The notes: generated from the letters alone by a model not told the origin. 64,000 nt of DNA from Deltaproteobacteria bacterium (GCA_029561465.1 JAKQIZ010000078.1:6638-70637); one strand, 5' to 3'. Shown: positions 35,367-58,266, counted from the stretch's first letter. Numbers and translations: made by a program.

Positions 35367-36887
35367 CTATGTCTTCCATCTTGCCATGCGTTCCCTGATG
35401 CCCGCGGTGACGATGTTCCTTGTCTCGCGGTAGCGCCTGGAAATCCTGCTCAGGAGATAATCCAGCGTCAATGCATACAAAAGAACCACCGAAAGTTTCA
35501 ACAAGAATAAATATGCCGCGGACAAAGCGACGGCGTCCAAGGAATAGACCAGGGCGAGCACCGCCAAGAGGGGCCACAGGTTGCGGATCAATCCGTAATC
35601 CGTCCGGTGGAGCCGCTGCGATATGTACAAGGTGATGAAAAATAGGATCACTTCGGATAATGTCTTGGCCAGGGCGGCGCCATAGACGAAAAAAATCGGG
35701 ATCAGCGTGTAATTAAAGTAAACGTTGAGGAGGGCGGAAAAAAACAGGGTCACGGGAAACCAGATCGTCTGATTCCGGAAGACAAACTTCAATTGAAAAA
35801 TGCCGGTGGCCTCAGAAAGGATAATGCTCAATAAAAAAATCGGCACGATCCGATAGCATTCATGAAAGCGGGCATTCATCAATAACTGCACGACTTCCTT
35901 GCTGAAAAGAGATATGACAAGGTAGAGGAACAGGGAAAACTGCACGAAGATGAGAAAAGCGTCCTTGATGTCGGACTGGATTTCCCGGTCTTGGGCATCG
36001 AGGCGTTTCGATATCTCCGGTTTGATGGCGGTCATCACCGGCCGGGACAAAAATGAATACTGGGTGGCGATATTCACCCCGGCCGTGTAGATGCCCACCG
36101 AATTAAGGGAAATCATATTGTTCAAGTAAACCTTATCAATCCGGTCCTGAACCCAGGAAAGGAAATTCAACGGCACCATGGGGAGGGAATAACGCATCGC
36201 CTCTTTAAAGATCGAAAGCTTATGCCAGGAAAAAGACAGCCACTCCCGAATCAGCCAGAGCCCATAGACCGTTATGGCCACCTGCACCGCCGCCTGGAGG
36301 ACGATGACATCCCACACATCGAAGCCCCAGTAACACAGGCCGACGATCTGCAAGGGCATAAAGAGGACAAACTGCACGATTTCCAGGTAGAAGATCTTCT
36401 TGTTTATCTGCAAGCTCAAGATGTTATCACTGATGAAACCGTAGATTGCCAAAAGCATCGCCATCAGTACCGGGATATACAGGTAAATCCGGTGGGGAAA
36501 GATTATGTCCTTGATAAAGAAATTTACCAACCGATCGATAAACAGGGAAGAAACAACCACGCCCACCGTGGAAAACATCAAGATATAAAAGAGGACCACG
36601 CCCAGACATTCCCGGCATTCCCGCCGGTCGCTTCTTTCATAACGATAGATGATCCGGCTGGAGTAAGAAACGAGTCCCATGCTGAAAATCCCGCTCAGAA
36701 AGGCCTGGACGACGCTGACCATGGCGATGACGCCGAAGTCCTGGGGGGAAAGATAGTAGGTAATGATCGGCAAGGTCAGCAGGGCGGCGACCTTGGTAAA
36801 GATGCGCACCGCGCTCAGCCAGAAGATATTGCCGAGGATGAACTTGTAGCCGTTCAAAGGGATCTTTTGCTCCGGACGGCGTCCCAC
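35367..36887 (-). CDS. wzx: oligosaccharide flippase (Wzx / MOP superfamily)
   Basis: About 12 hydrophobic segments across 506 aa, with locally lower GC. Start is GTG 36887, or TTG 36857 (TTGA overlap with the upstream stop). Confidence 0.8.
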   Translation of the reverse strand: MGRRPEQKIPLNGYKFILGNIFWLSAVRIFTKVAALLTLPIITYYLSPQDFGVIAMVSVVQAFLSGIFSMGLVSYSSRIIYRYERSDRRECRECLGVVLFYILMFSTVGVVVSSLFIDRLVNFFIKDIIFPHRIYLYIPVLMAMLLAIYGFISDNILSLQINKKIFYLEIVQFVLFMPLQIVGLCYWGFDVWDVIVLQAAVQVAITVYGLWLIREWLSFSWHKLSIFKEAMRYSLPMVPLNFLSWVQDRIDKVYLNNMISLNSVGIYTAGVNIATQYSFLSRPVMTAIKPEISKRLDAQDREIQSDIKDAFLIFVQFSLFLYLVISLFSKEVVQLLMNARFHECYRIVPIFLLSIILSEATGIFQLKFVFRNQTIWFPVTLFFSALLNVYFNYTLIPIFFVYGAALAKTLSEVILFFITLYISQRLHRTDYGLIRNLWPLLAVLALVYSLDAVALSAAYLFLLKLSVVLLYALTLDYLLSRISRRYRETRNIVTAGIRERMARWKT

Positions 36888-38701
36888 AGGATGGCGTTGA
36901 TTTTACTGATATCCTTTTCCGGACGGGAGTAGCGGCGGAGGAAGTCCCGATTCTTCGTCATGGGGTTGCCGTTTTGGACATCCGCCTGCAAGGCCGCCAG
37001 CGTCATGGGGAAATCCGCGACGTCGAAAGCGATCCGGATCCTTCGCCGCAGCAGCTCCAGCGCCGCGGCCTCGAGGCGGACCTGGTTTCCGTCCAAAAGG
37101 AGGGCGATGGGCTTGTCGGTCAGCAGACACTCCTGGAGAACGGTGGAGGGATAGTCGAGGATGAAGGCGGCGGCGCCGCCAAGAACCTCCTCCAGGGGCC
37201 TTGTCTCCATCCGGAGACGATCGCCGGCGCCGATATGGGAAGCATAGAGATTTTCCCGGCCGCGGACGGTTTTCAGTATGAATCGGCCTGAACCCGTATC
37301 CCCCACGGCCCGGAGAATCCTTTCCTGATGCCGATATGCCTGAAAAAAGGCGCCGCCGTTGAAGGGATAATGCTGCCAAGTACCGGTCTTGATATTGTCG
37401 AGAACGATATAGATTCCCTGGGCCCGTGTATCGCGCTTTGCGGTTGACAGCCGCTGCTCCACTTCCGCAAGATACGGGGAGCCGACGGGAATGATTCCGG
37501 CCGGACGGCCGTCGAAAAAAGGGCTTGCCGCCACGCCCTCGCCATAGACGAAAAAATAATCGGCAAGTTCCGCATCGAGATTGAACAGGGGCCAATCGAG
37601 ATAACCGGCACCGCCCCCCTCCTGGTAGGTCGCCACGGGCACCCCCAGGGACTTCGCCACGCCCATGATCAAGGCGTCTTTCAGATCCATGCGGCAGGCC
37701 GCCGTGCAGAGGAGAAGAGGCGATTCATCGGCCAGGAGCTTCCTGACCGCCGTCCCCAACCCGGTGATATTTTTCCCCAGGGAGAAGCGGAGGTATCCTT
37801 CCAGGCAGGCGAAGGCAAAACGGCACAGGGAGGCATGGCCGCGAAAAATTCGGTGCCCCGCCAGTTCCTTCTCCGCCGCCCGAAACGCCGCGGCGATGTC
37901 CCGATCATCCCCGTCGCCCCCGACGATGCCCGCCGTCCGCACGCGTCTTGAATGCAGGGATTTCAGGGCCACCAGCCTCGGCAGGAAAAATAGTTTGTAA
38001 AACTCCCGCTCCCCGCGGCAGTAGTCGGCCCAGACCTTGACGTCATACCGGTCATCGAGAAGGATCACTCCGCCCTGCTTGCCCGCCTTGCCCGCCCCCC
38101 GCGGCCAGCTCCGCCAACAGCTCTTCAGCAGCCCCGCCCACTCCCGATAGTCATCCTTCCTGTCCGGCCACGCCTTATTCCTTCCGACCCGGCGGACGGA
38201 AACGCCCTCGTGAACCGGCATAAAGACCTTTTCGGCGAGCGCGGGCACGAGGGGGTGTTCCCCGCCGATAATCCGTCCGAGGGCATATTCAGCGGCGATT
38301 ACCGTCGTACGACCGCCCGCCGCGTGGTTCAGCAACGCCGCGAAAATCAAATAGGAGGTAATGAGGCTGTCGAAAAAAATCTTGACCGGGAAAAAGGCAT
38401 GCCGGAAAAGATCGATGCCGTGGGCGCGGAAAAAGGCAAGGCGCGCCCGCAGTTCATCGTCGATGACGGCACAGATCTCGTTTGCCAAGGCCATGTTTTC
38501 CATCCCGATGGCATTCAGATCCGGCACCTCGACGAGGTCGTCGGGAAACAGACAGCTTATATGGTCTCTTTCCAGGGCCAGCTTTGCCCCCACGGAAAAA
38601 GAGACCACAGTGTCATCGGCTTGGCCGGGCCTCATTCCGGCCATGGGGAGCGCCGGTTCGGGAGCGGCGACGACAATCAGATTTCGCTTCTTGTTAGGCA
38701 T
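36854..38701 (-). CDS. large hypothetical protein (615 aa)
   Basis: Long ORF in operon context starting with ATG. No recognised motifs except a GT-B-like tail (AAFILDYPSTVLQECLLTDKPIALL). Confidence 0.5.
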   Translation of the reverse strand: MPNKKRNLIVVAAPEPALPMAGMRPGQADDTVVSFSVGAKLALERDHISCLFPDDLVEVPDLNAIGMENMALANEICAVIDDELRARLAFFRAHGIDLFRHAFFPVKIFFDSLITSYLIFAALLNHAAGGRTTVIAAEYALGRIIGGEHPLVPALAEKVFMPVHEGVSVRRVGRNKAWPDRKDDYREWAGLLKSCWRSWPRGAGKAGKQGGVILLDDRYDVKVWADYCRGEREFYKLFFLPRLVALKSLHSRRVRTAGIVGGDGDDRDIAAAFRAAEKELAGHRIFRGHASLCRFAFACLEGYLRFSLGKNITGLGTAVRKLLADESPLLLCTAACRMDLKDALIMGVAKSLGVPVATYQEGGGAGYLDWPLFNLDAELADYFFVYGEGVAASPFFDGRPAGIIPVGSPYLAEVEQRLSTAKRDTRAQGIYIVLDNIKTGTWQHYPFNGGAFFQAYRHQERILRAVGDTGSGRFILKTVRGRENLYASHIGAGDRLRMETRPLEEVLGGAAAFILDYPSTVLQECLLTDKPIALLLDGNQVRLEAAALELLRRRIRIAFDVADFPMTLAALQADVQNGNPMTKNRDFLRRYSRPEKDISKINAILWDAVRSKRSL

Positions 38702-42074: not shown

Positions 42075-42839
42075 TCACTTGGATCCGACATCCTCCCCCC
42101 GGGCCTGCTCCCAGGTCCGCTTGACCTGGCGGTTCAGCTCCAGCCACTCGGGGTGTTCCTTGAGGAGACCGATGATATCCATGGTGGTAAAGGCGGGATT
42201 CTTGGGGTAGAGATGCTCGTAGATCGCCTTGATCAATTCATAGTCGGCATACTCGTCCAGTTCGAGGTGCCAGTCGGGATAATGGAGCTCCGGCGGGGCA
42301 TAGACGTTATGCATCTTGAAAAGCTCCGGATTCTTGAGGATATAGAGGGTGACATGCTCCCGGAACTTCGCCTCCTTCGCCGCGCGATGCATCCGCTCCA
42401 AAGCGGCGAAAGCGAAAATCTGCACATCGATCCCGGGAGGATAGGACTGTTCAATGAAATTGCTCAGGTAATCGTAATCGGCCTTCAGAAACACGTCGAT
42501 GCAGGCGTCGATGAGCCAGGGGTCCAGGAGGGGGCAATCGCCCGTAACCTCCACGATCACGTCGGTCCGATGTTCCCGGGCGGCATGATAGACCCGGGCC
42601 AGGACGTCCTCCGAAGAGCCGCGAAAGCACTTCACGCCGTAATCGAGGCAGAACGCGGCGATGACGTCGTCCTCGGCGTTCACCGTCGTGGCCATGACGA
42701 TGTCCGTAATCCTCCGCGCCCGCCGCAATCTTTCCATCAGCAGCTCGATGGAGGGTTTCCCCAGGATCTCCATCATAGTTTTACCCGGCAGGCGGGAAGA
42801 ACCCATCCGCGCCTCGATAATGGCATTTACCCTTTTCAT
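42075..42839 (-). CDS. cytidylyltransferase, SpsF/PseF-like (acylneuraminate cytidylyltransferase family)
   Basis: AIIEARMGSSRLPGKTM N-terminal motif. 254 aa. Confidence 0.8.
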   Translation of the reverse strand: MKRVNAIIEARMGSSRLPGKTMMEILGKPSIELLMERLRRARRITDIVMATTVNAEDDVIAAFCLDYGVKCFRGSSEDVLARVYHAAREHRTDVIVEVTGDCPLLDPWLIDACIDVFLKADYDYLSNFIEQSYPPGIDVQIFAFAALERMHRAAKEAKFREHVTLYILKNPELFKMHNVYAPPELHYPDWHLELDEYADYELIKAIYEHLYPKNPAFTTMDIIGLLKEHPEWLELNRQVKRTWEQARGEDVGSK

Positions 42840-42842
42840 GCT

Positions 42843-44144
42843 CTACATCCCTTCCGTCGCCGCGTATTTCAGTAGTTGATCTTTCTCCGCCAGCACCTTC
42901 TCCACCCCCCGGGCGATTTCCTCCATATCGGCAAAGGTCTGGGGCGGCCGGACGATTTCCGTGGAGATCACCATCTTTTCCAGCTCCTCCGCCTGGGGAC
43001 AGATCCCCCGCTCATAGCTCACCTCCCCCCGGTAAAAGGGGCAGGAAAACGGGCAGCCCTTGTCGCCGTAGCCGATCCGCCGCTGGTAGAGGGGCTGGAG
43101 ATAGAGGGGTTTCATATAGCTCACATAAAAGTCCAGGCCTTCGGCGTTCAGGGCCTTGACGAACAGGGGCGCATCGATGGGGATGACCTCCCGGTCTATC
43201 TTCAGGGCATAGCGGTAATAAACATGGGTGGAATCGGGCCGCGCTCCGGGCAACCCCAGGCCGGGGATGCCCCGCAGCCTTTCGTTGAGGTAGGATACCA
43301 GCTCCCGCCGCCTTTGGGTGAGGTCGTCCAGTTTCCGCAATTGTTCCCTGGCGATCGCCGCCTCGATCTCCGTCATGCGGTAATTGCCGCCGATCATGTT
43401 GACCAGGCTCCCCACGGCCATGCCCGCCGCAATCACCGCCTCGCCGTGGTTGCGGATCAGACGGAGCCGCTGGGCCAGATCGTCATCGTCCGTCACGGCG
43501 ATTCCCCCTTCGCCGCATTGAATGACCTTGTTGCAGTTGAGACTGTAAACGCCGATAGCTCCGATCGTCCCGGAGAGCTTGCCGTTGTACAACGCCCCGG
43601 GCGACTGGGCGGCGTCTTCGATGACCCGCAGGCCGTGCTTTTTGGCCAGATCCATGATGGGACCCATCGCCGCCGGGTGGCCGAAGATATGGGTGACGAA
43701 GATCGCCCGGCTCCGGGCGGTGATCCTCTCCTCCAACCCGGCGGGATCGAGATTGTAATGGTCCAATTCCACGTCGGCAAAAACGGGAATGCCGTTGAAG
43801 GCCAGAATCGCCGTCGCCGTGGCGCTCATGGTGAAAGGCGTGATCAACACCTCGTCTCCCGGCCCCACCGCGCAGGCGCCGACAGCGGCAAACAGGGCCG
43901 ACGTGGCGGAGTTGAAGCTCACGGCATACCGGACGCCGAACTTCTCCGCCCACTCTCCTTCCAGGGCCTTTACCTGCTCACCCCCCAGGAAGTATTGATT
44001 GTTCGTCCCCTCGAACTCGGAAAGGATCGCCCTTTCCAAGACGGCCAGGACCGCCTTCTTTTCCTCTTCCCCCGTCGTGGCATGGACGGGATAGCCTTTC
44101 GTCCGCAGCGGTTTACCCCCCAGCAGGGCTAATTGTGCGTGCAC
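42843..44144 (-). CDS. DegT-family aminotransferase, long (~430-aa) subtype
   Basis: LALLGGKP start, VIEDAAQSPGA, NCNKVIQCGEGG (Lys). GTG start at 44144. Confidence 0.85.
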   Translation of the reverse strand: MHAQLALLGGKPLRTKGYPVHATTGEEEKKAVLAVLERAILSEFEGTNNQYFLGGEQVKALEGEWAEKFGVRYAVSFNSATSALFAAVGACAVGPGDEVLITPFTMSATATAILAFNGIPVFADVELDHYNLDPAGLEERITARSRAIFVTHIFGHPAAMGPIMDLAKKHGLRVIEDAAQSPGALYNGKLSGTIGAIGVYSLNCNKVIQCGEGGIAVTDDDDLAQRLRLIRNHGEAVIAAGMAVGSLVNMIGGNYRMTEIEAAIAREQLRKLDDLTQRRRELVSYLNERLRGIPGLGLPGARPDSTHVYYRYALKIDREVIPIDAPLFVKALNAEGLDFYVSYMKPLYLQPLYQRRIGYGDKGCPFSCPFYRGEVSYERGICPQAEELEKMVISTEIVRPPQTFADMEEIARGVEKVLAEKDQLLKYAATEGM

Positions 44145-45127
44145 TTCCCCGGACCTCCCTGTCTTTCTATTTCTTCGATTACCCTTTGAATATCCAGATA
44201 CCTTTGGGGAGATACGACCGGGATGAGTTCGGGCGCGCCGGCCAGACGCACCAGCTGCGCCACGGCTCCGCCCAGGGCATAACCGATGGTGCTCCTGATC
44301 CCCCGCCGGACCCGCCGCAGCTCCCTGGCCCCCGTCTCCGCCCGGTTTTCCCCCGCTTCCCAGACGACGATCTTCAGTCCCTCGTCCAATATCTGTATTC
44401 TCCCCTCCGTACAGACGAAATCCATCTCGAAGAGACGGAATTTGTCAAAATCGCAGCTCTGAATGAGGCAAGGGATATCCCCCGGAAACACCAGATAGAC
44501 ATCGTAGGAATATTCCCTGGCAGCGGGGGAGTAACGCCGGTCGAGGACGGTTATCCGCTCCGGCGCCCCCAGGGTATGAATGAGGTAGCCCAGCAGATGG
44601 GTCCCCATATTCCGGAGTCCCTTGCCGATATAGCAGTTCACCCGCTGGATGGCCCCGTATTCACCCCGCTGCAGGAGGGATCGGACCTGGAGGTGGGACT
44701 TGTCGTACTCCCGATAGAGGTTGATCGTGATCTTCGCGTCGTCCTGTTCCGTCCAGCGGGCGACCGCCTCGATCTCCGCCGTTCCCCGGGTAAAGGGTTT
44801 TTCGCAGAAGATCACGGGAACGGATTTCCTGGCCGCCTGGAGAATCTCCAAATGGGTTTCCGGGTGGGTGCAGACGCTCAGGATGTCCAGGGGGTTTTCC
44901 GCCAGCATTTGCCGGTAGTCGGAATATAATTTCGCCACGCCCCACTGCGCGCCGAACCGCCGCCGCCGCTCCGCGTCGATATCGGCCCCGCAAACCATCT
45001 CCACCGCCGGATGGCGGGCGTAGGACCCGGCATGGGTCAGGCACGGATAAAAGACCTTCGCCCGGGCGTCCTCCTCGTAGAGGGAGGCGATGCGGCCCAG
45101 GCCGACAATCCCCGCCTTGATCTTCAT
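44129..45127 (-). CDS. Gfo/Idh/MocA-family NAD(P) oxidoreductase
   Basis: MKIKAGIVGLGRIA Rossmann motif and FCEKP. 332 aa. Confidence 0.85.
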   Translation of the reverse strand: MKIKAGIVGLGRIASLYEEDARAKVFYPCLTHAGSYARHPAVEMVCGADIDAERRRRFGAQWGVAKLYSDYRQMLAENPLDILSVCTHPETHLEILQAARKSVPVIFCEKPFTRGTAEIEAVARWTEQDDAKITINLYREYDKSHLQVRSLLQRGEYGAIQRVNCYIGKGLRNMGTHLLGYLIHTLGAPERITVLDRRYSPAAREYSYDVYLVFPGDIPCLIQSCDFDKFRLFEMDFVCTEGRIQILDEGLKIVVWEAGENRAETGARELRRVRRGIRSTIGYALGGAVAQLVRLAGAPELIPVVSPQRYLDIQRVIEEIERQGGPGKCTHN

Positions 45128-45398
45128 TTTTCTTCTCTTAGGCTTTTTGAAAACATTATCGATGATTGTGAATTATGTAAGCTTATCCATTCAATAATAA
45201 CGACATCGTAAAAGGTCAAAAAATGTTCCATTTGGGACGGCATCGTAAAAAGATCCGCAGGCGAGGCGCGCGAATCCTGAGGAATGAGGCGTACTTGTGC
45301 GTACGTCGCAGTGACGAGGGATGAAGCGCAACGAAGCATCCGGACTTTTTACGATGCCGTCAATAATACTAAAATGCTTTTTACATTTAGCAACTAAA
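45128..45398 (-). promoter_or_regulatory. AT-rich 271-nt intergenic region splitting the array; probable terminator/promoter/operator zone
   Basis: Largest non-coding gap in the window and visibly AT-rich. Contains three copies of a ~17-nt motif (CG[A/G]CATCGTAAAA[G/A]) at 45201..45217, 45238..45255 and, inverted, 45342..45359. Confidence 0.55.
45236..45361. repeat. long-range inverted repeat (21 bp with one bulge) enclosing an ~83-nt GC-rich core
   Basis: GACGGCATCGTAAAAAG(A)TCCG at 45236..45257 is the reverse complement of CGGACTTTTTACGATGCCGTC at 45341..45361. Confidence 0.85.
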
Positions 45399-47420
45399 TC
45401 AAATGAAACGTCGAACCATTTTATCTTCTCTTCCTTTTTCTATCTCCAGATTAAAGAAGGCCTCGACGACCTCGATGGGGATCTTCCAGAAATCGATGAG
45501 GCGGATGTCGAGATGGCTCCCCGTGAACCGCCGCTGCCGCCATTCTTCGTAGGAGATGCCCGCCGGCGTGTTCGGATAGGGATTGTAGAGGCTTACGGTA
45601 TAGCCGTCGGCACGGAGGGCTTTTGTGTTCGCGAACATCTCCTCGTACTGGGCGCGATTGAACCATTTACCCCCCAGCATGAGGTAGATGACGCAGTTGA
45701 TCCCCACCTCCTGAATGACCTTGATCCATTCCGCCGCCCCGGCGAGGCTCACCCGCTTGGTCTTGACCTGGTGCCTTTCGCTGAGGGCGTTTTCCAAGCC
45801 CAGTTTGAGATGGGTGCATCCCGCGGCCTTCATCGACCGCAGGAGCTCCACATCCAGGGTATCGTAGCGGCTCTCCACCCGCCAGGTGATGCCGGGGAAT
45901 TTTTCCGTAACCTCCCGGCAGAACTCCAGGGCCATGGCTTTGTCGGCGGTGAAGTTGGCGTCGATGATATAGAAGTTACGGATGCCATAGTTCTCGTACC
46001 GAATCCGGATGTCTTCCATAACCGCCGCCCGGGGGCGGCAGCGGATTTTACCTTTGTTGATCTCCGCCACCCGGCAGAAATCGCAGGTCCCGGCGCATCC
46101 CCGGCGCCAGAGGATCGTATCCAGGGAGGGGGGAGAGATTTCCGTAGCCATCGTCTCAAACCGGAAGGGCGGCAGACTTTTCAACCCGTGCTCGGAGAGG
46201 AGCCCGCCGTTGATCCGGCCCCGTTGATGGTTTTCCAGGATGGCCGGCAGGAGGCTTTCCACCTCGCCATGAACGATCAGGTCGAAATCCTCGGAGGCCA
46301 ACCCCACCTCGGGGCCGACGGCGACGATATAGGCCCGGGGATTCACTTTCCGGACGATCTTGGCGATTTTCTGGGAGGAATCCCAATTCCCGCTGTCAAA
46401 AGAGGGGTTCAGGATATCCCCGCAGGTAACGAACACCGTATCTGAGCCATGGGCGCGGAAATATTCCTCGAACGCCGGGAAGGCCTCGCTTCCGGCCAGG
46501 TGGTCATAGAATTCGACGGAATTGAAGACCATCTGGTAGCGGGTCACATAGTTTTCATGGGGTTCGGAATCGCAGTGGTAGGTCCGGTTGGGGATGTGCA
46601 GGGAATCCAGACGGGAGGAGATGAAGGCCGCCCCCATGTTGAGGCGGTTGTTATGGCTCCCCAGAAGCTTGTAGAACGGGGGTATCACCAGGAGGACATC
46701 CCGCCGGCCCCCTTGGGCAACAAAACTCCTCCTGGCAATGGGGGCGGCGACGCCGTCCAGTTCCTCCTCGATCATCCGCGTGATCTTTTCCGGAAAGATC
46801 ATGTTGTTTTCATAGGTGATCCGGATCGCGCTGATATCGGCGTTGACGGCGGGGACGATATCGTACTCGTAGGAACGTCCCACATAAACCATGTCCCGGG
46901 TATCCGCGGAAAGGATTTCGCCCAGTTGCCGAAGGATATCGTTTTTGTCCATACCCAGGTCGCAGGAAAAGAGACAGCGGTCGAAACAATCGCCCACGGC
47001 GAGCTTGTGGGAGAGGAATTCCTTCTGATAGGCCCAGAGATTGGAAACCACCACGAGGGTGTATTTCTTCTTCAGCGCCGCGAGCAGTTCCATGGCCCCG
47101 GGAACCCAGCGTATCTCCCGGGCGTCGTTGTCCATGAGGGCACGGAACTTCTGGATGATTTTCTCTTTCAAAGGCGACCGGGGATTCTTCAGGCTCAGCA
47201 GCATGGACGACGTCTGCGACGGGGTGACATTTTCAAAGAATCTTTCCAGAAAGCGGGCCGGCTCCGTCTCGGCAATCAACAGGCACCGTTTCTGCTGTTC
47301 CGGGGAGATCTCCTCGCCCGTAATATCCTGGTAAAATATGGAGATAGCCGAATCCTCCGTACCGAAGATCAGGGTTTCCCACAAGTCAAAAACTACAATT
47401 TTCTTTTTTTTATCAACCAT
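45399..47420 (-). CDS. fusion protein: degenerate HAD-like domain (N-terminal ~215 aa) plus B12-binding radical SAM domain
   Basis: VVFDLWETLIF (HAD motif I with the second Asp replaced), VVSNLW, YVGRSYEYD (degenerate motif IV). This is followed by a Rossmann-like region and CAGTCDFC (CX3CX2C). Confidence 0.8.
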   Translation of the reverse strand: MVDKKKKIVVFDLWETLIFGTEDSAISIFYQDITGEEISPEQQKRCLLIAETEPARFLERFFENVTPSQTSSMLLSLKNPRSPLKEKIIQKFRALMDNDAREIRWVPGAMELLAALKKKYTLVVVSNLWAYQKEFLSHKLAVGDCFDRCLFSCDLGMDKNDILRQLGEILSADTRDMVYVGRSYEYDIVPAVNADISAIRITYENNMIFPEKITRMIEEELDGVAAPIARRSFVAQGGRRDVLLVIPPFYKLLGSHNNRLNMGAAFISSRLDSLHIPNRTYHCDSEPHENYVTRYQMVFNSVEFYDHLAGSEAFPAFEEYFRAHGSDTVFVTCGDILNPSFDSGNWDSSQKIAKIVRKVNPRAYIVAVGPEVGLASEDFDLIVHGEVESLLPAILENHQRGRINGGLLSEHGLKSLPPFRFETMATEISPPSLDTILWRRGCAGTCDFCRVAEINKGKIRCRPRAAVMEDIRIRYENYGIRNFYIIDANFTADKAMALEFCREVTEKFPGITWRVESRYDTLDVELLRSMKAAGCTHLKLGLENALSERHQVKTKRVSLAGAAEWIKVIQEVGINCVIYLMLGGKWFNRAQYEEMFANTKALRADGYTVSLYNPYPNTPAGISYEEWRQRRFTGSHLDIRLIDFWKIPIEVVEAFFNLEIEKGREDKMVRRFI

Positions 47421-47440: not shown

Positions 47441-48238
47441 TTATTGCCGGCCACTGAATCTGTTCCTCAGGAACTCCTGGTTTTGCCGCTCCGCGTCGGT
47501 CATGGTCTTTTCGTCCGTTCCCAGCATGGAAACGATCATCCGCTTGTATTCCACCAGCATCTTCAGCTCCAGGGGATCGGCGGAAAGGATATGATCCGTG
47601 CCGAAATAGGTCTTCGAAAGGGTAATGTGCTTCTCGATGACCGCCGCCCCCCGGGCCACCGCCACCAGGGGCGCCACGATGCCCAAGGTATGATCGGAGT
47701 AACCAACCTGGCACCGGTAACGCTCCCGGAGGTAGTCCATGGTCCGCATGTTGACCCGTTCATCCGGGAGGGGATATTCCGATACACAATGGAGGAGATA
47801 GAGGTCCACTTTTTTTAGCATTGCCACCGCCGCGTCGATCTCCGCCACGGAGGACATCCCGGTGGACAGGAAGACCTTGTCCGCCCGGTCGTTGACCAGT
47901 TTGAGGAGATCATGATCGGTGATATGAAAGGAGGCGATCTTCATGTCCCGCACCCCCAAAGAAAAGAGGTCCGCCGCCTTGGCGGCGTCCCAGGGGGTGC
48001 AGAGAAAGGCGATGCCCCGCTGGCGGGCTATCCCGTAGAGATAGCGCAACTGGTCCATGTCGAGCTGCACCTTCCGGAACCATTCCTTTTCCGGATCGCT
48101 GTCGGCACAGGCCTCGGCGTCATAGTACTGGAACTTCACATAGTCGGCTCCCGCCTCCCGGGAGACATCGATCATCTTCCGGGCGAGATCCATGTCCCCC
48201 AGGTGATTTTCCCCCGCTTCCGCAATGATGATGCACAT
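47441..48238 (-). CDS. NeuB/SpsE-family PEP-dependent sugar synthase homologue lacking the C-terminal SAF domain
   Basis: MCIIIAEAGENHLGDMDLARKMIDVSREAGADYVKFQ and GYSDHTLG motifs. Only 265 aa from ATG 48238. Confidence 0.8.
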   Translation of the reverse strand: MCIIIAEAGENHLGDMDLARKMIDVSREAGADYVKFQYYDAEACADSDPEKEWFRKVQLDMDQLRYLYGIARQRGIAFLCTPWDAAKAADLFSLGVRDMKIASFHITDHDLLKLVNDRADKVFLSTGMSSVAEIDAAVAMLKKVDLYLLHCVSEYPLPDERVNMRTMDYLRERYRCQVGYSDHTLGIVAPLVAVARGAAVIEKHITLSKTYFGTDHILSADPLELKMLVEYKRMIVSMLGTDEKTMTDAERQNQEFLRNRFSGRQ

Positions 48239-48254
48239 TTTCCTATCTACCCCC

Positions 48255-49226
48255 TCAGCCGAAGATTTTTCGCAACCGGACGACGGCCTCGTATTGGGAG
48301 ACATTATGCCCATGATCGCCGTTTTCCGGATCGATTTCCATGATCAGGGTCTCATCGCCCCGCACCTTTCCCAGCAGTTCCGCAAAATCCACATTGCCCC
48401 GACCGATGGGGAGACCCTCCGTGTAGAGATATTTGTCCATTTCGTCAAGGCCATCATCCGGCCGCCAGCGGCAGGCGTCGGAAACGTGAAAATATTCGAT
48501 GAAACCATTAACGAAGTCCGCCGCCGTCAGATACTCCGCCTGGGCAAGGTCTTCGGCGTAGATGTTGCCGAAGCGTACATCGCCGGCCAAATGCCCGTGG
48601 CGTTGCCGCATGTTGAACATGTTGGCCGACAGGACGGCATGGGCCGTATCGAGGAGAAAGCCCACCGATCCCAATCCCAGCTTCCCGACCGCTTCCGCCA
48701 GTATGGCCATATCCCAGGGAAAACAGTGATCCAGGGGGCTTACCGCATATTCCGCCCCCAATCCCGGCGGCAGCCACACGAATCCGTAGTTTTCCAGGAG
48801 GATCCTCACTCCCTTTGGCGCGGCGAGATCGTTCCACCGGGCCACCCGCTCGATGAATCCCCGCCGGGCCTCTTGCTTGGGGATATCGCGGTTAAATCCG
48901 TAACAGCAGTGCATGACCAGTTCGGCGGCGCCGATCCCCTCCGTAAAGGCCAAAACCTTCGTAAGTTTATCCGGATCATCGTCGATGGCGTCAAAGAGGT
49001 AACCTGTCTCGACATCCATGATGGGGAAATGGACGATAAACCGGCAGGCCTCGCCAAGCCGCCGCACCCCGGACATAAAAGCCGCCGCTTCCGGATGGAA
49101 GACATCCCTGGCGCCGAACAGATGGAGTTCGATGACCGGCGGGAGTCCCAGACGCCGAAAGCTCTCCCGGCGGTCCTGCAACTGGGAGGGAAAGACCGCC
49201 GCCTTCATACCGTATTTAAAAGCCAA
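48255..49226 (-). CDS. xylose-isomerase-like TIM-barrel protein (sugar phosphate isomerase/epimerase family)
   Basis: The overall pattern (LLDTAH, LLENYG, HVSD) resembles the AP-endonuclease-2/xylose-isomerase-like TIM family. Start is TTG 49226 or ATG 49208. Confidence 0.7.
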   Translation of the reverse strand: MAFKYGMKAAVFPSQLQDRRESFRRLGLPPVIELHLFGARDVFHPEAAAFMSGVRRLGEACRFIVHFPIMDVETGYLFDAIDDDPDKLTKVLAFTEGIGAAELVMHCCYGFNRDIPKQEARRGFIERVARWNDLAAPKGVRILLENYGFVWLPPGLGAEYAVSPLDHCFPWDMAILAEAVGKLGLGSVGFLLDTAHAVLSANMFNMRQRHGHLAGDVRFGNIYAEDLAQAEYLTAADFVNGFIEYFHVSDACRWRPDDGLDEMDKYLYTEGLPIGRGNVDFAELLGKVRGDETLIMEIDPENGDHGHNVSQYEAVVRLRKIFG

Positions 49227-49241: not shown

Positions 49242-50306
49242 TTATTCTGACAAAACTCTTTCAAACTGTTCCATAATTGTTTTAACCGGGTCGCCTGACG
49301 ACGGAAGGGAATGACCGGGGGCATCCCCGCCCCGGCCTGCAAAAACGGCGTCGAGGCGTTCATATAGTTCGGCGGCCGTCGTTACGAGGCGGTCGGCGAT
49401 CAGGCGGTTGTGGGCATGAGGCGCCTTCCCCGGGCCGACGGGTTGAAAACTGATCACGGGGAGGCCGAGCAGGTGGGCCTCCGTGAGGATCGTGGAGGTC
49501 ATGCCAATGACGACGTCCGCCGCCTGGAGGAAACGGCATGCGGCGTCCCCTTCTTCAAAGGCCCAGTCGCTGCCGCCTCCCGGAGGGGCGAAAAAATCTA
49601 CGTAAAGCGCCCGGTCATCGCGGGGGTGGAGCCTGATCCGGAGGGAAAAGCCACCCCGGCCCCGCGCTGCGATGTAGGCGGAGAGGATATTCAGGATGTG
49701 GAGTTCGTCATAGCCGTACTTCTCCGTCTCCCCGGCGGCGGCGATGTATTCCGTACAGAAGGTGATCAGCCGTTTGCCGCCTAACCGCAACTCCTCCCGG
49801 AGCAGCTCTCTCTCCCCGGCGGCAAGTCGGCGTGCGGCTACCGCCGCGAGATAGGGCGAACCGGCAACGCTGATCCGCTCCCGGGGGACGCCGAGACGGG
49901 CCACGTCCGCCGCCGCCGCCTCGTCCGCCACGATGATCAGGTCGGGGAAGACCAGCTCGCCGTTCTTTTCAAATCGCTCCCGGCAGTGTTTCACCATGTC
50001 GAGAAGGCAGACGCTCTTCTTTCCCCACCCCCGGGCCGCGCGCCACAGGCGGTGCTCCACGTCCGACGTAGGCGCAGTGCCCGTCACGATCAGGTCGAAA
50101 TCCTTCCCCAAGCCATCGTCGAGCACCGCCTCCTCGTCGATCACCCGCCGGCAGAGATAATCTCCCGGTTCGATCTCCCGGGGCCCCAGGCAGCCCACGG
50201 CGTAACGTTCCCGGCAGGCGCGGAGGACCGGATGGATCATGTTGAAGGAACCGTGCTGGGTCGCCGCGAACAGGATGCGCTTCTTATCCCGCATCTCCGT
50301 CCGCAT
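49242..50306 (-). CDS. hypothetical GT-B-like protein (PseG/epimerase/transferase-like?)
   Basis: IRLHPRDD and VVIGMTSTILTEAHLLGLPVISF resemble a GT-B C-terminal half. Family not recognised. Confidence 0.45.
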   Translation of the reverse strand: MRTEMRDKKRILFAATQHGSFNMIHPVLRACRERYAVGCLGPREIEPGDYLCRRVIDEEAVLDDGLGKDFDLIVTGTAPTSDVEHRLWRAARGWGKKSVCLLDMVKHCRERFEKNGELVFPDLIIVADEAAAADVARLGVPRERISVAGSPYLAAVAARRLAAGERELLREELRLGGKRLITFCTEYIAAAGETEKYGYDELHILNILSAYIAARGRGGFSLRIRLHPRDDRALYVDFFAPPGGGSDWAFEEGDAACRFLQAADVVIGMTSTILTEAHLLGLPVISFQPVGPGKAPHAHNRLIADRLVTTAAELYERLDAVFAGRGGDAPGHSLPSSGDPVKTIMEQFERVLSE

Positions 50307-51270
50307 TGCCTTTGTAGTACAGCGGGGGGCACCAGTGATGGCCCGCCACCCAATCGGTGTTGGGAAAATCGCCGCCCTTCTTCATGATCCGGTGGCAGGG
50401 GGTATCGTAAACCTTTCCCGTCGATCTCTCCACGGGATCGAAGACGATGTACTTGTAATAACCCGACTCCATCCCGGCGGGAAAGAGGACCCGGTTCGGG
50501 AAGCGGGGATCGAGATGCCGCTCGGCGTACGCCCGTTTCCAGGCGACGATCTCGGCCAGCCGGTCCGTCTGGACGCAGCCCAAGGCGGCGGCAAACTCGC
50601 TCATCCGGTAGTTGAAACCCGCTACGCCGTAATCGGGTTTCCCGTAATTCCGGTATTGCCGGGCAAATTCGGCAAGGCCTTTGTCGGCCGTTACCAGCAT
50701 GCCTCCCTCGCCGGTGGAAATCGTCTTGGTGGCATAGAAGGAGTAAACGCCGGCCTCACCCCAGGAACCGGGGCGCTTCCCCCGCCAGGAGGCGCCGTGG
50801 GCGTGGGCGCAATCCTCGATCAGGACGATCCCCTTCTTTTTGCACAGGGCGGCGATCGCCTCGATCTCGAAGGCCACGTGGCCGCCGATATGGACCACCC
50901 ACACCGCGGCGGGCCGATGGGCCTCGATCTTCGCCTGCAAATCCGCGTATGACATGCACAGGTCATGGCGGTTGCAGTCCACGAACTCCACCGCGGCCCC
51001 GGCCTTGATCACACTCAGGGGCGTCGCCATGAAGGTGTTGGACGGGCAGAGGACCGTTTTCCCCGCCAATTGGAAATATTCCAGGGCCGCCAGGGCCGCC
51101 CCCGCCCAACTGGAAAAGGAAACGGACTCCAGACCGTTGTATTCCGACCATTTTTCCTCGAAGGTCCGGGTGAACCTCCCCTCCGTCCACTGATGGGTGG
51201 CGACGATGCTGTCCCAGTACTCATGGAGGGTCTTCAGGTCCTCCGTTTCGAAACCGATGGTAAATTTCAT
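50284..51270 (-). CDS. DegT-family aminotransferase (short, 328 aa)
   Basis: LIEDCAHAHGA and GVYSFYATKTISTGEGG (catalytic Lys). Confidence 0.85.
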   Translation of the reverse strand: MKFTIGFETEDLKTLHEYWDSIVATHQWTEGRFTRTFEEKWSEYNGLESVSFSSWAGAALAALEYFQLAGKTVLCPSNTFMATPLSVIKAGAAVEFVDCNRHDLCMSYADLQAKIEAHRPAAVWVVHIGGHVAFEIEAIAALCKKKGIVLIEDCAHAHGASWRGKRPGSWGEAGVYSFYATKTISTGEGGMLVTADKGLAEFARQYRNYGKPDYGVAGFNYRMSEFAAALGCVQTDRLAEIVAWKRAYAERHLDPRFPNRVLFPAGMESGYYKYIVFDPVERSTGKVYDTPCHRIMKKGGDFPNTDWVAGHHWCPPLYYKGNADGDAG

Positions 51271-51274
51271 GATC

Positions 51275-53218
51275 TCATGCTCCTCGTAATTCAGCGACTA
51301 CGGCCTTGACGGCATCGGCGCCGGCAAAAGGGGCGCCGATGTTGTTTTCCCGGAGATACCTTTCCGCCGCGCGATCCAGGGACGGGGGCATGGCGCCGGA
51401 AGCTTCCCGATCACGCAGAAAATCATTCATGAATCTCCCCACCCGGCGTGAGGCGTCGAAATCACCGAAATAATTATAACTTTCTTTCCATCGAGAAAAG
51501 TCCCCCACCGTTTTATCCCCATCCGCCGCCCGGATGATTGCCGCTTCCAGATCTTGCCGGCGCCGGAAGATAAACCGCTGTTCACCGTCGCGATAAAACG
51601 GATGCCGATACCATCGGGAGCAATCCCAATGCACCACTTTGTGCCCATGGACGGCGCAGACAATACCGGCGGAATTCAGACCGTAACACACGGAAAGATG
51701 GGCCCGGGCCGCCGCGGCCAAAGGAGAGGCGGTGGGGGCGAGCGCCTTCAGGCGCCGATCGGCAAGCAGCCGGTGGATATTATCCTGCCCCTCCGCGCCG
51801 GTGATGAAGGACGCCATGTCATCCAAGCGCCAGTTTTTGCTTTTGACGATGAGCCCCCAGGAGGGCCGCCGGACGGCGAGGGAGAGGAGCCAACGGTAAA
51901 ACGCCGCCAGCGTCGCTTCGGTCTGATGGATGTTGTAAGACGCCGACGAATCGAAAACGGCCAACACGAAATCCACCTCCGGCGGGAAAGGCGCCGGGTC
52001 TTCGTTTTCGTCCGTCCCGGAGGCGCCCAGCCACATCCCCGCGGGAAGGAGATAACGGCTCGTGTGACCCGTCTGGCGGACAAAATCATATATCGCCTGC
52101 CCCCAGACAAAGAAGACGTGAAAGGGAAAGAGGTGGTTTTGGGTCATGACGGTAGGATAATTCGACCAGTGCAGGCCCATGAGGATGCCTCCGGCCGCTT
52201 CCACCGCCCGTGCCCACATCTCCTGCCGCCACGATGTGTCGTGATGCTGGATGAGGATGCGGACTTGAAACTTGCGAAACAGCGACGCATAAATTGCATA
52301 GTTCAGATTATAGAGAAAAAACAGATAGCCGATGAGGAGCGGATAACGTCGGAGGGCCGTCCACCCCGTGGCGAAAATCCTCGCCAGCCCCCGGAAGGTC
52401 ATCCCGCTCATCCGCACCGCCGCAAGGAAGTGGGCGTCCACCCATTTGCATCCTTGCCGGTTCAGCAGGCGGATCGTCGCCTCATCGGCCGGGGTGTCGC
52501 CGCGAAAGAGGAAATAAACGAGATCGTAATGATGCAGATCGACGTGCTCCCGCCAAAAGGTGAAATCAAGGCCGCTGCTGTGTTCAAATTCCACCCAGAT
52601 AGCCGGCTTGTCCCCGGTGATGTTGGCACGGACCTTCCCGCCGGTCGACATTCCATATATCAGCAGGGGGATGTAAAGCAGCAACCTCAGCAATATTCCC
52701 GGCTTCTCGTTCTTTAACCCGCCGTTTTTGATGATCAGACCGGTCTGCTCGTAGAGGCGGGCGATGAAAATATTCAAGGAGTGATTTTTCAGGTAGATTT
52801 CATCGACCAGGGCTTCTTTTTCCGCCCGGCCGCGGATCTTTTCCCGCACCATCTCGATGAAGGCGATCCGCTTGTAGAGGCTGTCGAAAAGAAAACTCCT
52901 CACCATGTTCATCTGGGCGGGATGCTCCGGCCAGGCCAGTTCCCGGCCCAGGGTCGCCAGGCATTGTTCGATCTTGTCCCGGACCTCATAGGCCAGCCCC
53001 TCCCCCTCCTCATCGCGGCGATCCAGGCAGAGGGACGCCGCCCGTGCGACCAGGGGCAAACCGATCTTTTCCATCAGCCCGATAACAAATATCGGCCCCG
53101 GGGAAGCCTGGTGCTCATCGTAATGGACGATCAGGCGGTTTCCGAGGGACCGGAGGAGGATGGTCAAGAGGGCGCCGGGGCCTAATTTCTGGATCCAGAG
53201 CGCGCGCGTGGGTTTCAT
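51275..53218 (-). CDS. large hypothetical protein (~647 aa)
   Basis: Long ORF in operon context. ATG 53218 (MKPTRALWIQKLG) is preferred over TTG 53347 and ATG 53329, whose extra residues look non-coding. No family recognised. Confidence 0.5.
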   Translation of the reverse strand: MKPTRALWIQKLGPGALLTILLRSLGNRLIVHYDEHQASPGPIFVIGLMEKIGLPLVARAASLCLDRRDEEGEGLAYEVRDKIEQCLATLGRELAWPEHPAQMNMVRSFLFDSLYKRIAFIEMVREKIRGRAEKEALVDEIYLKNHSLNIFIARLYEQTGLIIKNGGLKNEKPGILLRLLLYIPLLIYGMSTGGKVRANITGDKPAIWVEFEHSSGLDFTFWREHVDLHHYDLVYFLFRGDTPADEATIRLLNRQGCKWVDAHFLAAVRMSGMTFRGLARIFATGWTALRRYPLLIGYLFFLYNLNYAIYASLFRKFQVRILIQHHDTSWRQEMWARAVEAAGGILMGLHWSNYPTVMTQNHLFPFHVFFVWGQAIYDFVRQTGHTSRYLLPAGMWLGASGTDENEDPAPFPPEVDFVLAVFDSSASYNIHQTEATLAAFYRWLLSLAVRRPSWGLIVKSKNWRLDDMASFITGAEGQDNIHRLLADRRLKALAPTASPLAAAARAHLSVCYGLNSAGIVCAVHGHKVVHWDCSRWYRHPFYRDGEQRFIFRRRQDLEAAIIRAADGDKTVGDFSRWKESYNYFGDFDASRRVGRFMNDFLRDREASGAMPPSLDRAAERYLRENNIGAPFAGADAVKAVVAELRGA

Positions 53219-53411
53219 TGCCGGAAGGCTTTGCGTAACCGGGGTCCTTGCCTGACGCCGCCCCCAGGGACCGAACGATGGTGGAGATGCCGGTTTCCCC
53301 GCGCAAAAGGCAGGGAAAGACCCGGACATGACGCGAGACCTTTGCAAAACTCTGTTCCCGCCTCCATATTGTCATTCCTGCAAAAGCGGTAATCCAGTAT
53401 TATCAAGGAGT

Positions 53412-55954: not shown

Positions 55955-56117
55955 CCCAGACGAATTGATCCGCCTTGACCACAAAGGCGATGCTGCCGCC
56001 CAGTTTTTCCAGGGCCTTGCTTTCGAACACCTTGGTAAAATCGTTGTTCGCCGCCGCGGCGGTTTCGTTGTCTTCCTTGCGGTCTATTTCATAATTTCCC
56101 TTCAGCAGCTTACTCAT
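55932..56117 (-). CDS. small acidic hypothetical protein (61 aa)
   Basis: ATG preceded by AAGGAG with a 6-nt spacer. Overlaps the upstream stop by 8 nt and the downstream start. The composition does not look like a GC-rich shadow ORF. Confidence 0.55.
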   Translation of the reverse strand: MSKLLKGNYEIDRKEDNETAAAANNDFTKVFESKALEKLGGSIAFVVKADQFVWDGDDDVK

Positions 56118-56829
56118 GGATCACTCCTTTGGTGAGCAAAAACTCGGCAAATAAAAAGTCTATCGGTTCGTCGATGTCCACGGACCGTTCCGCCGGCATG
56201 ACACTCACCCCGGTCTTGTCGGCAATAATGACCCCCTCGTCAAAAAGGGTATCCCGCCGGGTGGCATAGACGGCGCCGTTGGGAATGACGAGTTCCGACA
56301 AGGATTGAAAGATCCCCCGCTCCCCCTTCATGGCCCCCGCCAGAAGCAGTTCCGCCCGCTGGTTTTCCCGCCGGCGGAACATCCATTCCGGTCGTTCGGT
56401 AACCGTTTTTGCGGTGAAGGACGATTTCAGTTCCTTGTCCGCCAAAAGAACCTCGATACAGGCGTCGATATCCGCGCCGGTACAAAACGGCGTGGTGGGC
56501 TGCATGGTGACGGCGATATCGACCGGCCGGCCTTCCTGGGACTCGATAAATTCCACGGCATGCCGGCTGACCCATTCCGACGGGCAGTCCTCCGCCAGGT
56601 GGGCCGGCCGGGTAAAGGGGACCTCCGCGCCGTAGCGCCGGGAAATGCTCCGGATCTCGTCGTGATCGGTGGAAACGATGACCCGGCGCAGATGCCGACT
56701 GGCCAGGGCGGCCTTGATCAGGTAGGCGATCAAAGGTTCCTCCCCCAGTAATTTTATGTTTTTCAAGGGGATGCGCTTCGACCCCCCCCGGGCGTGGATG
56801 ATACCGACAATATTTAAATCGTTTTCCAT
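56110..56829 (-). CDS. neuA: CMP-nonulosonic acid synthetase (acylneuraminate cytidylyltransferase, NeuA/LegF-like)
   Basis: VGIIHARGGSKRIPLKNI N-terminal motif. 239 aa. Confidence 0.85.
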   Translation of the reverse strand: MENDLNIVGIIHARGGSKRIPLKNIKLLGEEPLIAYLIKAALASRHLRRVIVSTDHDEIRSISRRYGAEVPFTRPAHLAEDCPSEWVSRHAVEFIESQEGRPVDIAVTMQPTTPFCTGADIDACIEVLLADKELKSSFTAKTVTERPEWMFRRRENQRAELLLAGAMKGERGIFQSLSELVIPNGAVYATRRDTLFDEGVIIADKTGVSVMPAERSVDIDEPIDFLFAEFLLTKGVIHE

Positions 56830-56833
56830 AGCT

Positions 56834-58204: not shown

Positions 58205-58266
58205 AATTCCCCTTTCTATACCTTTGAAAACAGGCTTCGCCGCGGCTCAGAAATCTTTTTCCTTTC

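Follow-up and report, generated by a model that had tools for sequence, protein, structure and literature searches.

Among enzymes of known structure, the closest relatives of the protein discussed here are radical S-adenosylmethionine (SAM) enzymes in which an N-terminal Rossmann domain precedes a barrel with a CxxxCxxC motif. By sequence of the radical SAM core the best solved relative is AprD4 (6fd2), the apramycin 1,2-diol dehydratase, which is second-best by fold. Its substrate is an amino sugar, and it depends on a partner, the oxidoreductase AprD3, encoded separately as a reductase; together the two deoxygenate a sugar (PMC5461906). AprD4 is grouped with the B12 radical SAM enzymes without binding cobalamin, and the same holds for ArsL, which has the same fold and lies in the same similarity network (2026 review, PMC12931638). 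The class B radical SAM enzymes MgmA/QCMT (9ccb), TsrM (6wtf), TokK (7kdx) and OxsB (5ul3) also have the two-domain fold (Foldseek E values from 1e-17 to 1e-10), and glycan-associated class B relatives are fused to glycosyltransferase (GT) or methyltransferase domains. We describe a gene in a 64,000-nucleotide stretch of DNA from a Deltaproteobacteria bacterium (GCA_029561465.1 JAKQIZ010000078.1:6638-70637; this whole stretch is called the window below) whose product carries these two domains behind a third one, with the fold of the haloacid dehalogenase (HAD) superfamily.

Neither AprD4 nor the class B enzymes have such a HAD domain. AprD4 differs further in that it serves an aminoglycoside pathway and not one of the nonulosonic-acid type, while the Rossmann domain of the fusion departs from those of the class B enzymes by an insertion and by GPE in place of GGG. 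The original prediction for this gene, made from the DNA sequence, knew of no characterised fusion of HAD and radical SAM domains. Our literature searches found no description of one either, nor did they find a link between radical SAM enzymes and nonulosonic acids, papers on pseudaminic and legionaminic acids included. We regard the protein as a carbohydrate-modifying, class-B-like radical SAM enzyme with an unusual HAD-derived N-terminal module.

A HAD domain joined to a radical SAM enzyme

The open reading frame (ORF) starts with an ATG at 47420, preceded by a ribosome-binding site (GAAGAGG) and located 20 nucleotides past the stop of the upstream NeuB-like gene. That it is a single ORF of 673 amino acids had been predicted correctly, and it runs through the domains without a stop or frameshift. 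Its strand had not: the gene is on the minus strand. A plus-strand reading of the same interval was ruled out, as its translation is riddled with stops. The motif strings given below were located exactly.

45399-47420, minus strand: whole HAD-Rossmann-radical SAM ORF, 673 amino acids plus stop (ORF calling, Pfam, homologues, AlphaFold2 model)
46746-47420, minus strand: N-terminal HAD-IA domain with helical C1 cap, residues 1-225 (Pfam, NCBIfam, profile against the PDB, Foldseek; ratio of nonsynonymous to synonymous substitution rates, dN/dS, 0.14)
47370-47390, minus strand: HAD motif I, FDLWETL; nucleophile D12 kept, the aspartate two residues on (Asp+2) replaced by W14 (alignment)
47037-47045, minus strand: HAD motif II, S126-N127-L128 (S in 27 and N in 30 of 30)
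46860-46880, minus strand: HAD motif IV, GRSYEYD; first, Mg-binding Asp replaced by R182, D187 kept (alignment)
46698-46745, minus strand: unconserved linker, residues 226-241 (predicted local distance difference test score, pLDDT, below 50 at 232-238; dN/dS 0.44)
46146-46697, minus strand: divergent B12-binding-like Rossmann domain, residues 242-425 (hhalign, Pfam, Foldseek)
45402-46145, minus strand: radical SAM partial TIM barrel and C-terminal helices, residues 426-673 (Pfam, family profile)
46074-46097, minus strand: CxxxCxxC motif for the [4Fe-4S]/SAM cluster, CAGTCDFC, C442-C446-C449 (invariant, 30 of 30)

The fusion is a genuine, conserved two-part enzyme and not an assembly artefact. 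Among 5.8 billion proteins there are about 30 homologues that match over the full length; they have 656-684 amino acids and are 43-100% identical to the window protein. All of them have HAD and Radical_SAM Pfam matches, and the best name that any carries is 'radical SAM protein'. Among 1.84 billion representatives at 50% identity, HMMER found the full architecture in only 4-5 clusters (P0002, P0030, P0033, P0034 and fragments), together with many stand-alone relatives of residues 242-672 (420-460 amino acids, 27-33% identity). The 90% cluster of the window protein is seen on at least 54 contigs and includes entries named Syntrophales bacterium; other members come from metagenome-assembled genomes (MAGs) of Dissulfurispiraceae/Nitrospirota and Elusimicrobiota, and a scan of genome representatives with two peptide patterns matched two MAGs. 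One Elusimicrobia member that seemed to be truncated at its N-terminus has a miscalled start, with METKKRIVVFDLWETL in frame upstream.

The original prediction had proposed the fusion and had also raised the possibility that a missed stop or a frameshift lies between the domains. The fusion is borne out by the AlphaFold2 (AF2) model, Foldseek, Pfam and the homologues. The idea that a missed stop, a frameshift or a chimeric assembly made one reading frame out of two genes can practically be dismissed, because some 30 independent full-length homologues of the same length share the architecture, in clusters from JGI, ENA, NCBI and Logan assemblies with MAGs named from at least three phyla, and the linker is in frame in every cluster. 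The AF2 model, built on a 32-sequence alignment, has a pLDDT of 89.6 and a predicted template modelling score of 0.89, and only residues 232-238 of the linker are disordered in it. Against a relative of 86% identity, dN/dS (Nei-Gojobori) is 0.14 for the HAD part, 0.44 for the linker, 0.09 for the Rossmann domain and 0.08 for the radical SAM part. The value of 0.14 means that the HAD part is under purifying selection. Identity to the six relatives compared ranges from 30 to 81% in the HAD part and from 46 to 88% in the radical SAM barrel.

The N-terminal layout had been recognised as HAD-like, and both profile comparison and AF2/Foldseek confirm the fold. The Pfam family 'Hydrolase' matches residues 7-194 at E=3e-5, slightly under its gathering score; in the homologues the region carries PF13419 and PF00702. 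A profile of the HAD part matches HAD proteins of the PDB with E values down to 1.6e-9. Searched against the PDB with Foldseek, the N-terminal third of the model matches the MtlD phosphatase domain, the N-terminal domain of soluble epoxide hydrolase, HDHD3, YfnB, HDHD4/NANP and a dehalogenase.

In the HAD superfamily Asp+2 is the general acid/base. In canonical members its side chain touches the phosphate of the substrate, while the carbonyl of its backbone is a chelating ligand of Mg2+ (PMC10541634). The states of the HAD positions in 30 fusion proteins of the main clade are given below; the divergent P0030, P0033 and P0034 were tallied apart.

Position 12 (nucleophile): D in 29 of 30, the single gap being a miscalled start
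Position 14 (Asp+2): W in 29 of 30, the single gap being a miscalled start
Position 126 (motif II): S in 27 of 30, T in 1
Position 127: N in 30 of 30
Position 159 (motif III): K in 28 of 30, R in 2
Position 181: G in 30 of 30
Position 182 (first Asp of motif IV): R in 15, K in 12, E, S and D in 1 each
Position 187 (second Asp of motif IV): D in 27, N in 3

In the cap, R104 (30/30) and W105 (29/30) are conserved as well. The window protein thus has the nucleophile Asp, the motif II Ser/Thr and the motif III Lys/Arg of a HAD phosphatase core and lacks both Asp+2 (DxDxT/V) and the GDxxxD of motif IV. The three divergent fusions retain DLW and also retain GD (GDSYEDD, GDRYDND and GDSYEDD, respectively). 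The HAD profile further aligns, over the full length including the C1 cap, with 2om6 of P. horikoshii (a 'probable phosphoserine phosphatase' from structural genomics), whose motif I is DVWNTL, and it finds HADs of 206-212 amino acids, one of them named Woesearchaeota, with FFDLWGTLVE and GDSxxxD. Like the fusion, these proteins have Trp at Asp+2; unlike it, they stand alone and keep GDxxxD. Since Trp at Asp+2 is invariant in the fusion family and is also found in stand-alone HADs, it is a signature inherited within a 'DxWxT' subfamily and not decay specific to the fusion. The Mg-binding Asp was lost later, and only in the subclade of the window protein. The original prediction of altered catalytic motifs is therefore right with respect to the replacement of both Asp residues, but the word 'degenerate' is misleading for motif I, where DLWxTL is invariant and inherited. 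The fusion opens up a little-known HAD branch whose members do without the general acid/base residue.

A canonical counterpart is encoded in the same island (28806-29447, minus strand): a stand-alone HAD of 213 amino acids which, in contrast to the fused one, has FDFDGVL and VGDSQTD. It adjoins a gene of the 'Cyclase' family at 29451-30113.

In the other half, Pfam Radical_SAM (PF04055) matches residues 440-595 at E=2.8e-13 (50.8 bits against a cut-off of 29.5). With the three cysteines C442, C446 and C449 invariant in all 30 proteins and a barrel fold by Foldseek, membership in the radical SAM superfamily is clear. Foldseek matches in the PDB for the C-terminal two-thirds are MgmA (9ccb), AprD4 (6fd2), TsrM, MiaB, TokK, OxsB and CysS. 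The family profile finds AprD4 at E=1.7e-29, MgmA at 3e-18, TsrM at 2e-7 and TokK at 2e-6. The AprD4 alignment covers the barrel only (residues 433-617), and for NF033070 the fusion scores 53.4 bits, below the cut-off of 500. The NCBIfam families ApyD, ladderane radical SAM, HpnJ and AprD4, as well as TIGR02253 and YjjG for the HAD part, all score below their curated cut-offs.

The Rossmann domain is more divergent. Pfam B12-binding (PF02310) gives E=0.12 only, at residues 315-394, and a precomputed PF02310 match is present in 0 of 30 family members. Compared by hhalign with canonical B12 domains of neighbouring class B radical SAM enzymes, residues 242-425 align with a probability of 91.8% and E=7.5e-7. 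A family-specific insertion of about 24 residues near 285-310 is highly conserved (E289, Y291, R294, Y295, Q296, N300, S301, F304 and Y305), and GPE stands where canonical B12 domains have GGG after the aligned strand. Because the Pfam match is at E=0.12 and AprD4 and ArsL share the fold without cobalamin, we consider 'B12-binding' as established in the sense of fold homology only. Of the B12-binding radical SAM enzyme that had been predicted around CAGTCDFC, the radical SAM barrel and its motif stand, while the B12-binding part holds for the fold; AprD4, the best solved relative by sequence, binds no cobalamin.

Stand-alone radical SAM relatives (28-33% identity) are found in clusters for nucleoside diphosphate (NDP) sugars, and more distant ones carry a fused GT2, GT4 or methyltransferase domain, which makes the clade a carbohydrate-associated one. 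In two of the relatives (P0048 and P0051) an intein (Intein_splicing with HNH or LAGLIDADG) separates the B12-binding domain from the radical SAM core.

The operon around the fusion

The LegC/LegG/LegI/LegF and PseC/PseG/PseI/PseF pathways use an aminotransferase, a 2-epimerase-like enzyme, a NeuB-type synthase and a cytidine monophosphate (CMP) transferase. The same four functions are encoded together around the fusion, in the following genes.

50284-51270, minus strand: short DegT-family aminotransferase (Pfam; conserved in homologous loci)
49242-50306, minus strand: GT-B protein of 354 amino acids resembling NDP-sugar 2-epimerases (AF2 and Foldseek)
48255-49226, minus strand: conserved xylose-isomerase-like TIM-barrel protein, AP_endonuc_2 (Pfam, synteny)
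47441-48313, minus strand: upstream partner of the fusion, a short NeuB-type synthase lacking SAF (Pfam NeuB E=4e-67, no SAF match)
44129-45127, minus strand: downstream partner of the fusion, a GFO/IDH/MocA oxidoreductase (Pfam, synteny)
42843-44144, minus strand: DegT-family aminotransferase, 433 amino acids (Pfam)
42075-42839, minus strand: CMP-sugar-type cytidylyltransferase, CTP_transf_3 (Pfam)

Because the module holds these four generic functions, its gene content identifies it as a probable pathway for a CMP-activated surface sugar of the nonulosonic-acid type, that is, a sialic-acid-like one. It is not a copy of the known pathways. Its NeuB lacks SAF, its core has neither a 4,6-dehydratase nor an N-acetyltransferase, and it adds genes for the TIM barrel, the GFO oxidoreductase, the HAD-radical SAM fusion, a SPASM radical SAM protein and a methyltransferase.

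Homologous loci are referred to by number where they have to be told apart. The core consists of six genes: the short DegT, the protein of about 350 amino acids, the AP_endonuc_2 TIM barrel, the NeuB without SAF, the fusion and the GFO oxidoreductase. It is complete in the Dissulfurispiraceae locus L001/L002, L003, L005 (Elusimicrobia) and L010 (the closest relative); in L004 it is complete except for the short DegT, none having been called there. A second DegT, CTP_transf_3, a methyltransferase, a SPASM radical SAM gene and a LIC12162-family gene follow GFO in L001, L003, L004 and L010. L005 is a contig of 9.5 kb on which GFO is followed by a B12 radical SAM gene, the contig ending soon after and before any cytidylyltransferase. 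The most divergent locus, L006, has another gene order, with the short DegT, the fusion, a 338-amino-acid protein of no known family, the NeuB without SAF, a cytidylyltransferase and a LIC12162-family gene together; no GFO or TIM-barrel gene was recognised in it.

The synthase is the most constant neighbour. It adjoins the fusion in the window, L001/L002, L003, L004, L005 and L010 and is one gene away in L006. Wherever it is linked to the fusion (window, L001, L003, L004, L005, L006 and L010) it is 253-290 amino acids long and has no C-terminal SAF domain; the short NeuB scores 249 bits against a NeuB cut-off of 400. In the relatives, GFO either overlaps the fusion gene or lies right against it. 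In other systems a pair of GFO and DegT enzymes converts a hydroxyl to an amine. No kinase is present in the conserved module. The fusion family is the fixed centre of a conserved operon of uncultured anaerobes whose product is probably a new and extensively modified surface sugar.

The 354-amino-acid protein has no sequence match in Pfam, NCBIfam or the PDB. Its AF2 model (pLDDT 84.7) matches UDP-GlcNAc 2-epimerases of the GT-B fold, NeuC included, so that judging from the model it is apparently an enzyme of the epimerase type that has diverged very far. For the TIM-barrel neighbour no PDB sequence match was obtained. The DegT of the core is consistently short (300-338 amino acids). Its alignment covers only positions 9-250 of a Pfam model that has 360, and the usual C-terminal part is apparently absent.

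Separate relatives of the two halves were also looked at in their genomic surroundings, at two loci each. The stand-alone radical SAM relatives P0036 and P0038 have no HAD neighbour (Rosetta-stone test). The stand-alone DxWGT HADs P0205 and P0209 are located beside HIT-family genes and not beside radical SAM or sugar genes. Neither set of surroundings yielded a direct link to function. The HIT-family gene comes directly after the 'DLWGTL' HAD (L011 1840-2920 and L012 6001-7019), and on the evidence of these two loci the HAD-HIT pair may be conserved, hinting at nucleotide substrates.

What the HAD half may do

Several suggestions can be made regarding the function of such a fusion. The one we favour, and to which we would give about an even chance, is that the enzyme modifies a sugar by radical SAM chemistry and that its HAD-derived module serves to hold a phosphate or a nucleotide group. 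Most likely the radical SAM half, being class-B-like or AprD4-like, would cleave SAM reductively to a 5'-deoxyadenosyl radical, and this would abstract hydrogen from a sugar or nucleotide-sugar of the pathway. The outcome might be deoxygenation through diol dehydration of the AprD4 type or, if cobalamin is bound, C-methylation or rearrangement. The keto or hydroxyl position produced in this way could then be taken up by the GFO oxidoreductase and the DegT aminotransferase. The HAD half would recognise the substrate by its phosphate or nucleotide group and hold it for the radical SAM half or deliver it there.

We infer that the HAD half is not a classic Mg-dependent phosphatase, since Asp+2 is absent everywhere and the Mg-binding Asp has become Arg or Lys in the subclade of the window protein. 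A role other than that of a phosphatase had already been suggested originally, and with these two residues replaced we judge it most likely. Since there is no kinase in the conserved module, a sugar-9-phosphate on which a phosphatase similar to NANP could act is not expected.

Other observations weigh against a mere holding function, or at least complicate it. Every homologue known to us here is derived from a metagenome or a MAG. The strictly conserved nucleophile Asp, Lys and Ser suit catalysis at least as well as binding. In P0030, P0033 and P0034, as in the stand-alone DxWGT HADs, the Mg-binding GD is intact, and the HAD domain of the ancestral fusion may for this reason have been an active phosphotransferase. 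As stand-alone radical SAM relatives work without a HAD, the HAD half could carry out an independent second reaction. Finally, AprD4-like and methylase-like chemistry cannot be told apart, the scores for the NCBIfam families ApyD, ladderane, HpnJ and AprD4 being far under their cut-offs.

A more specific version can be imagined, which we consider a long shot. The fusion would be a 'radical phospho-lyase' whose halves cooperate in a single new reaction: the DxWxT HAD site, where Arg or Lys would stand in for Mg2+, would take hold of the sugar by its phosphate or nucleotide ester, and an adjacent carbon radical generated by the radical SAM half would expel the phosphate or nucleotide by beta-elimination. 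If correct, this would be a route to deoxy or amino-deoxy nonulosonic acids, and the HAD fold would have a new use as holder of the leaving group. Alternatively, Asp12 could covalently trap an electrophile derived from the radical.

Whatever the reaction is, solving it would extend the class-B/AprD4-like group of radical SAM enzymes by a domain architecture new to it and would reveal a role of the HAD fold without Asp+2 and without the Mg site. It may also bring to light a new way of making deoxy, amino or C-methyl nonulosonic acids, with a bearing on glycan diversity.

The strongest competitor, possible though doubtful, is a bifunctional enzyme. Here the HAD half would be an active phosphatase or phosphotransferase (acting like N-acylneuraminate-9-phosphatase, NANP, on a nonulosonate-9-phosphate, or as a nucleotidase) that catalyses a separate step, the role of Asp+2 being taken over by another residue or by a group of the substrate. 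Conservation of the nucleophile Asp, the motif II Ser, the motif III Lys and D187 argues for this, as does GDxxxD in the divergent members and the stand-alone DxWGT HADs. The gene directly follows that of a NeuB-type synthase, which is also the thematic link to NANP. The NANP/HDHD4 structures (2w4m, 4knv) and the YjjG nucleotidases have the same HAD-IA fold with C1 cap (Foldseek about 1e-7), NANP is among both the Foldseek and the profile matches, and the best NCBIfam HAD matches of the fusion are TIGR02253 (CTE7; E=1.9e-11) and YjjG nucleotidase (E=2.5e-11). These scores are far under the cut-offs, however; TIGR02253 gives 44.2 bits against 169.75, and with DLWET as motif I the fusion falls outside this N-acylneuraminate-9-phosphatase family. 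NANP and YjjG have canonical DxDxT and GDxxxD, whereas Trp is at Asp+2 in every member of the fusion family and the Mg-binding Asp is Arg or Lys in the window's subclade. The conserved module also contains neither a kinase nor a phosphomutase to make a phosphorylated sugar, and nothing in the operon points to a source of a 9-phosphorylated one; the 2-epimerase-like protein, if it is of the hydrolysing kind, could yield the free sugar.

The remaining suggestions are progressively less likely, with the joining of two separate genes last. The HAD half might be a dead structural or oligomerisation domain that serves folding or docking, for example to the NeuB-type synthase, and has no ligand. Two catalytic residues are gone in the window's subclade, the HAD part is less conserved than the barrel over the six relatives compared, and stand-alone radical SAM relatives need no HAD at all. 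The residues that are conserved, however, are those of the active site (D12, S126, N127, K159 and D187) together with R104 and W105 of the cap, and a dN/dS of 0.14 is at odds with a dead domain. We find this explanation improbable.

Chemistry of the dehalogenase type is still harder to defend and would surprise us. It would consist of metal-free attack of the Asp on carbon, with an ester intermediate on a sugar acid, as in L-2-haloacid dehalogenase or azetidine-2-carboxylate hydrolase. The aromatic residue at Asp+2 recalls the DxYGT enzymes, the subgroup to which the original prediction had compared motif I, and the Mg ligand is absent in the window's subclade. There are also core-only profile matches to 3smv and 8yvw (E=2e-5) and a Foldseek match to 2no5. 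Dehalogenases have Tyr at Asp+2 and Ser-x-Asn-x-x-Asp as motif IV (L-DEX YL), but the fusion has Trp and G-R-S-Y-E-Y-D. The comparison with the DxYGT subgroup therefore fails: there is no Tyr, motif IV differs, TIGR01428 is at E=0.0076 with a cut-off of 125 bits, and the matches, 3smv among them, are weak and limited to the core. The DxWxT HADs, whose metal site is intact, are nearer relatives, and the pathway offers no obvious substrate with an electrophilic carbon.

Loading of a glyceryl group onto a carrier protein, as by FkbH, had also been proposed and is hardly credible: it draws on nothing but the general idea of a HAD domain used beyond simple hydrolysis, residues 242-673 are a Rossmann domain and a radical SAM barrel in place of the Cys-bearing C-terminal domain of the FkbH type, and gene calling over about 10 kb at each of five homologous loci gave neither a phosphopantetheine carrier nor an acyltransferase, the short ORFs of the window not having been scanned.

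The repeat element and the wider island

The gene had been described as the first one after an AT-rich break. In the direction of transcription it is the last one before it: a gap of 271 nucleotides (45128-45398) separates the fusion from GFO in the window, while in L010 GFO overlaps the stop of the fusion. The gap contains one further feature.

45236-45361, no strand assigned: multicopy inverted-repeat element of 126 bp, resembling a miniature inverted-repeat transposable element (MITE) or a repetitive extragenic palindrome (REP) (repeats, folding, metagenome copies; absent in L010)

The element has perfect terminal inverted repeats of 17 bp (GACGGCATCGTAAAAAG and CTTTTTACGATGCCGTC), with a third, partial arm at 45195-45217, and folds into a long hairpin (z = -3.9). 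Exact arms at this spacing are present in 66 metagenome stretches, often in several copies per contig and in both orientations, and the internal sequence is conserved among these copies. An Rfam scan of the intergenic gap gave no match. The AT-rich break is a MITE/REP-like multicopy insertion and not an ancient operon boundary: the 126-bp element has been inserted between two genes which, in L010, overlap each other. The element does not belong to the enzyme system.

The window as a whole is a surface-glycan island. Besides the operon of the fusion it holds a classical legionaminic-acid-like set at 56110-62697, with a NeuB with SAF, a NeuC-type epimerase, a CBS-nucleotidyltransferase, GFO, DegT and a cytidylyltransferase; this NeuB is full-length and is encoded at 61492-62697. 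The island also has a Maf/MptE-like gene, three cytidylyltransferases, three genes of the B12 radical SAM type and two SPASM radical SAM genes. Putative transferases of the LIC12162 and TIGR04326 families, a Wzx-like flippase, glycosyltransferases and asparagine synthases are encoded as well. In the literature searched, LIC12162 is mentioned in a single genome paper on another topic.

A protein of 755 amino acids (17674-19941, minus strand) combines a pyruvate-kinase barrel with PUA_2 and ATP-sulfurylase domains and is followed by an adenosine-5'-phosphosulfate (APS) kinase (17135-17854, minus strand). This unusual fusion of pyruvate kinase and sulfurylase presumably supplies 3'-phosphoadenosine-5'-phosphosulfate (PAPS) for glycan sulfation. 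Three proteins of 580-690 amino acids (36854-38701, 51275-53347 and 27079-28821, minus strand), each near a cytidylyltransferase, belong to poorly characterised 'surface carbohydrate' families, namely LIC12162 transferase, PFTS_polysacc (in homologous loci) and TIGR04326/LIC13510. They are candidates for the transferases of nonulosonic acids.

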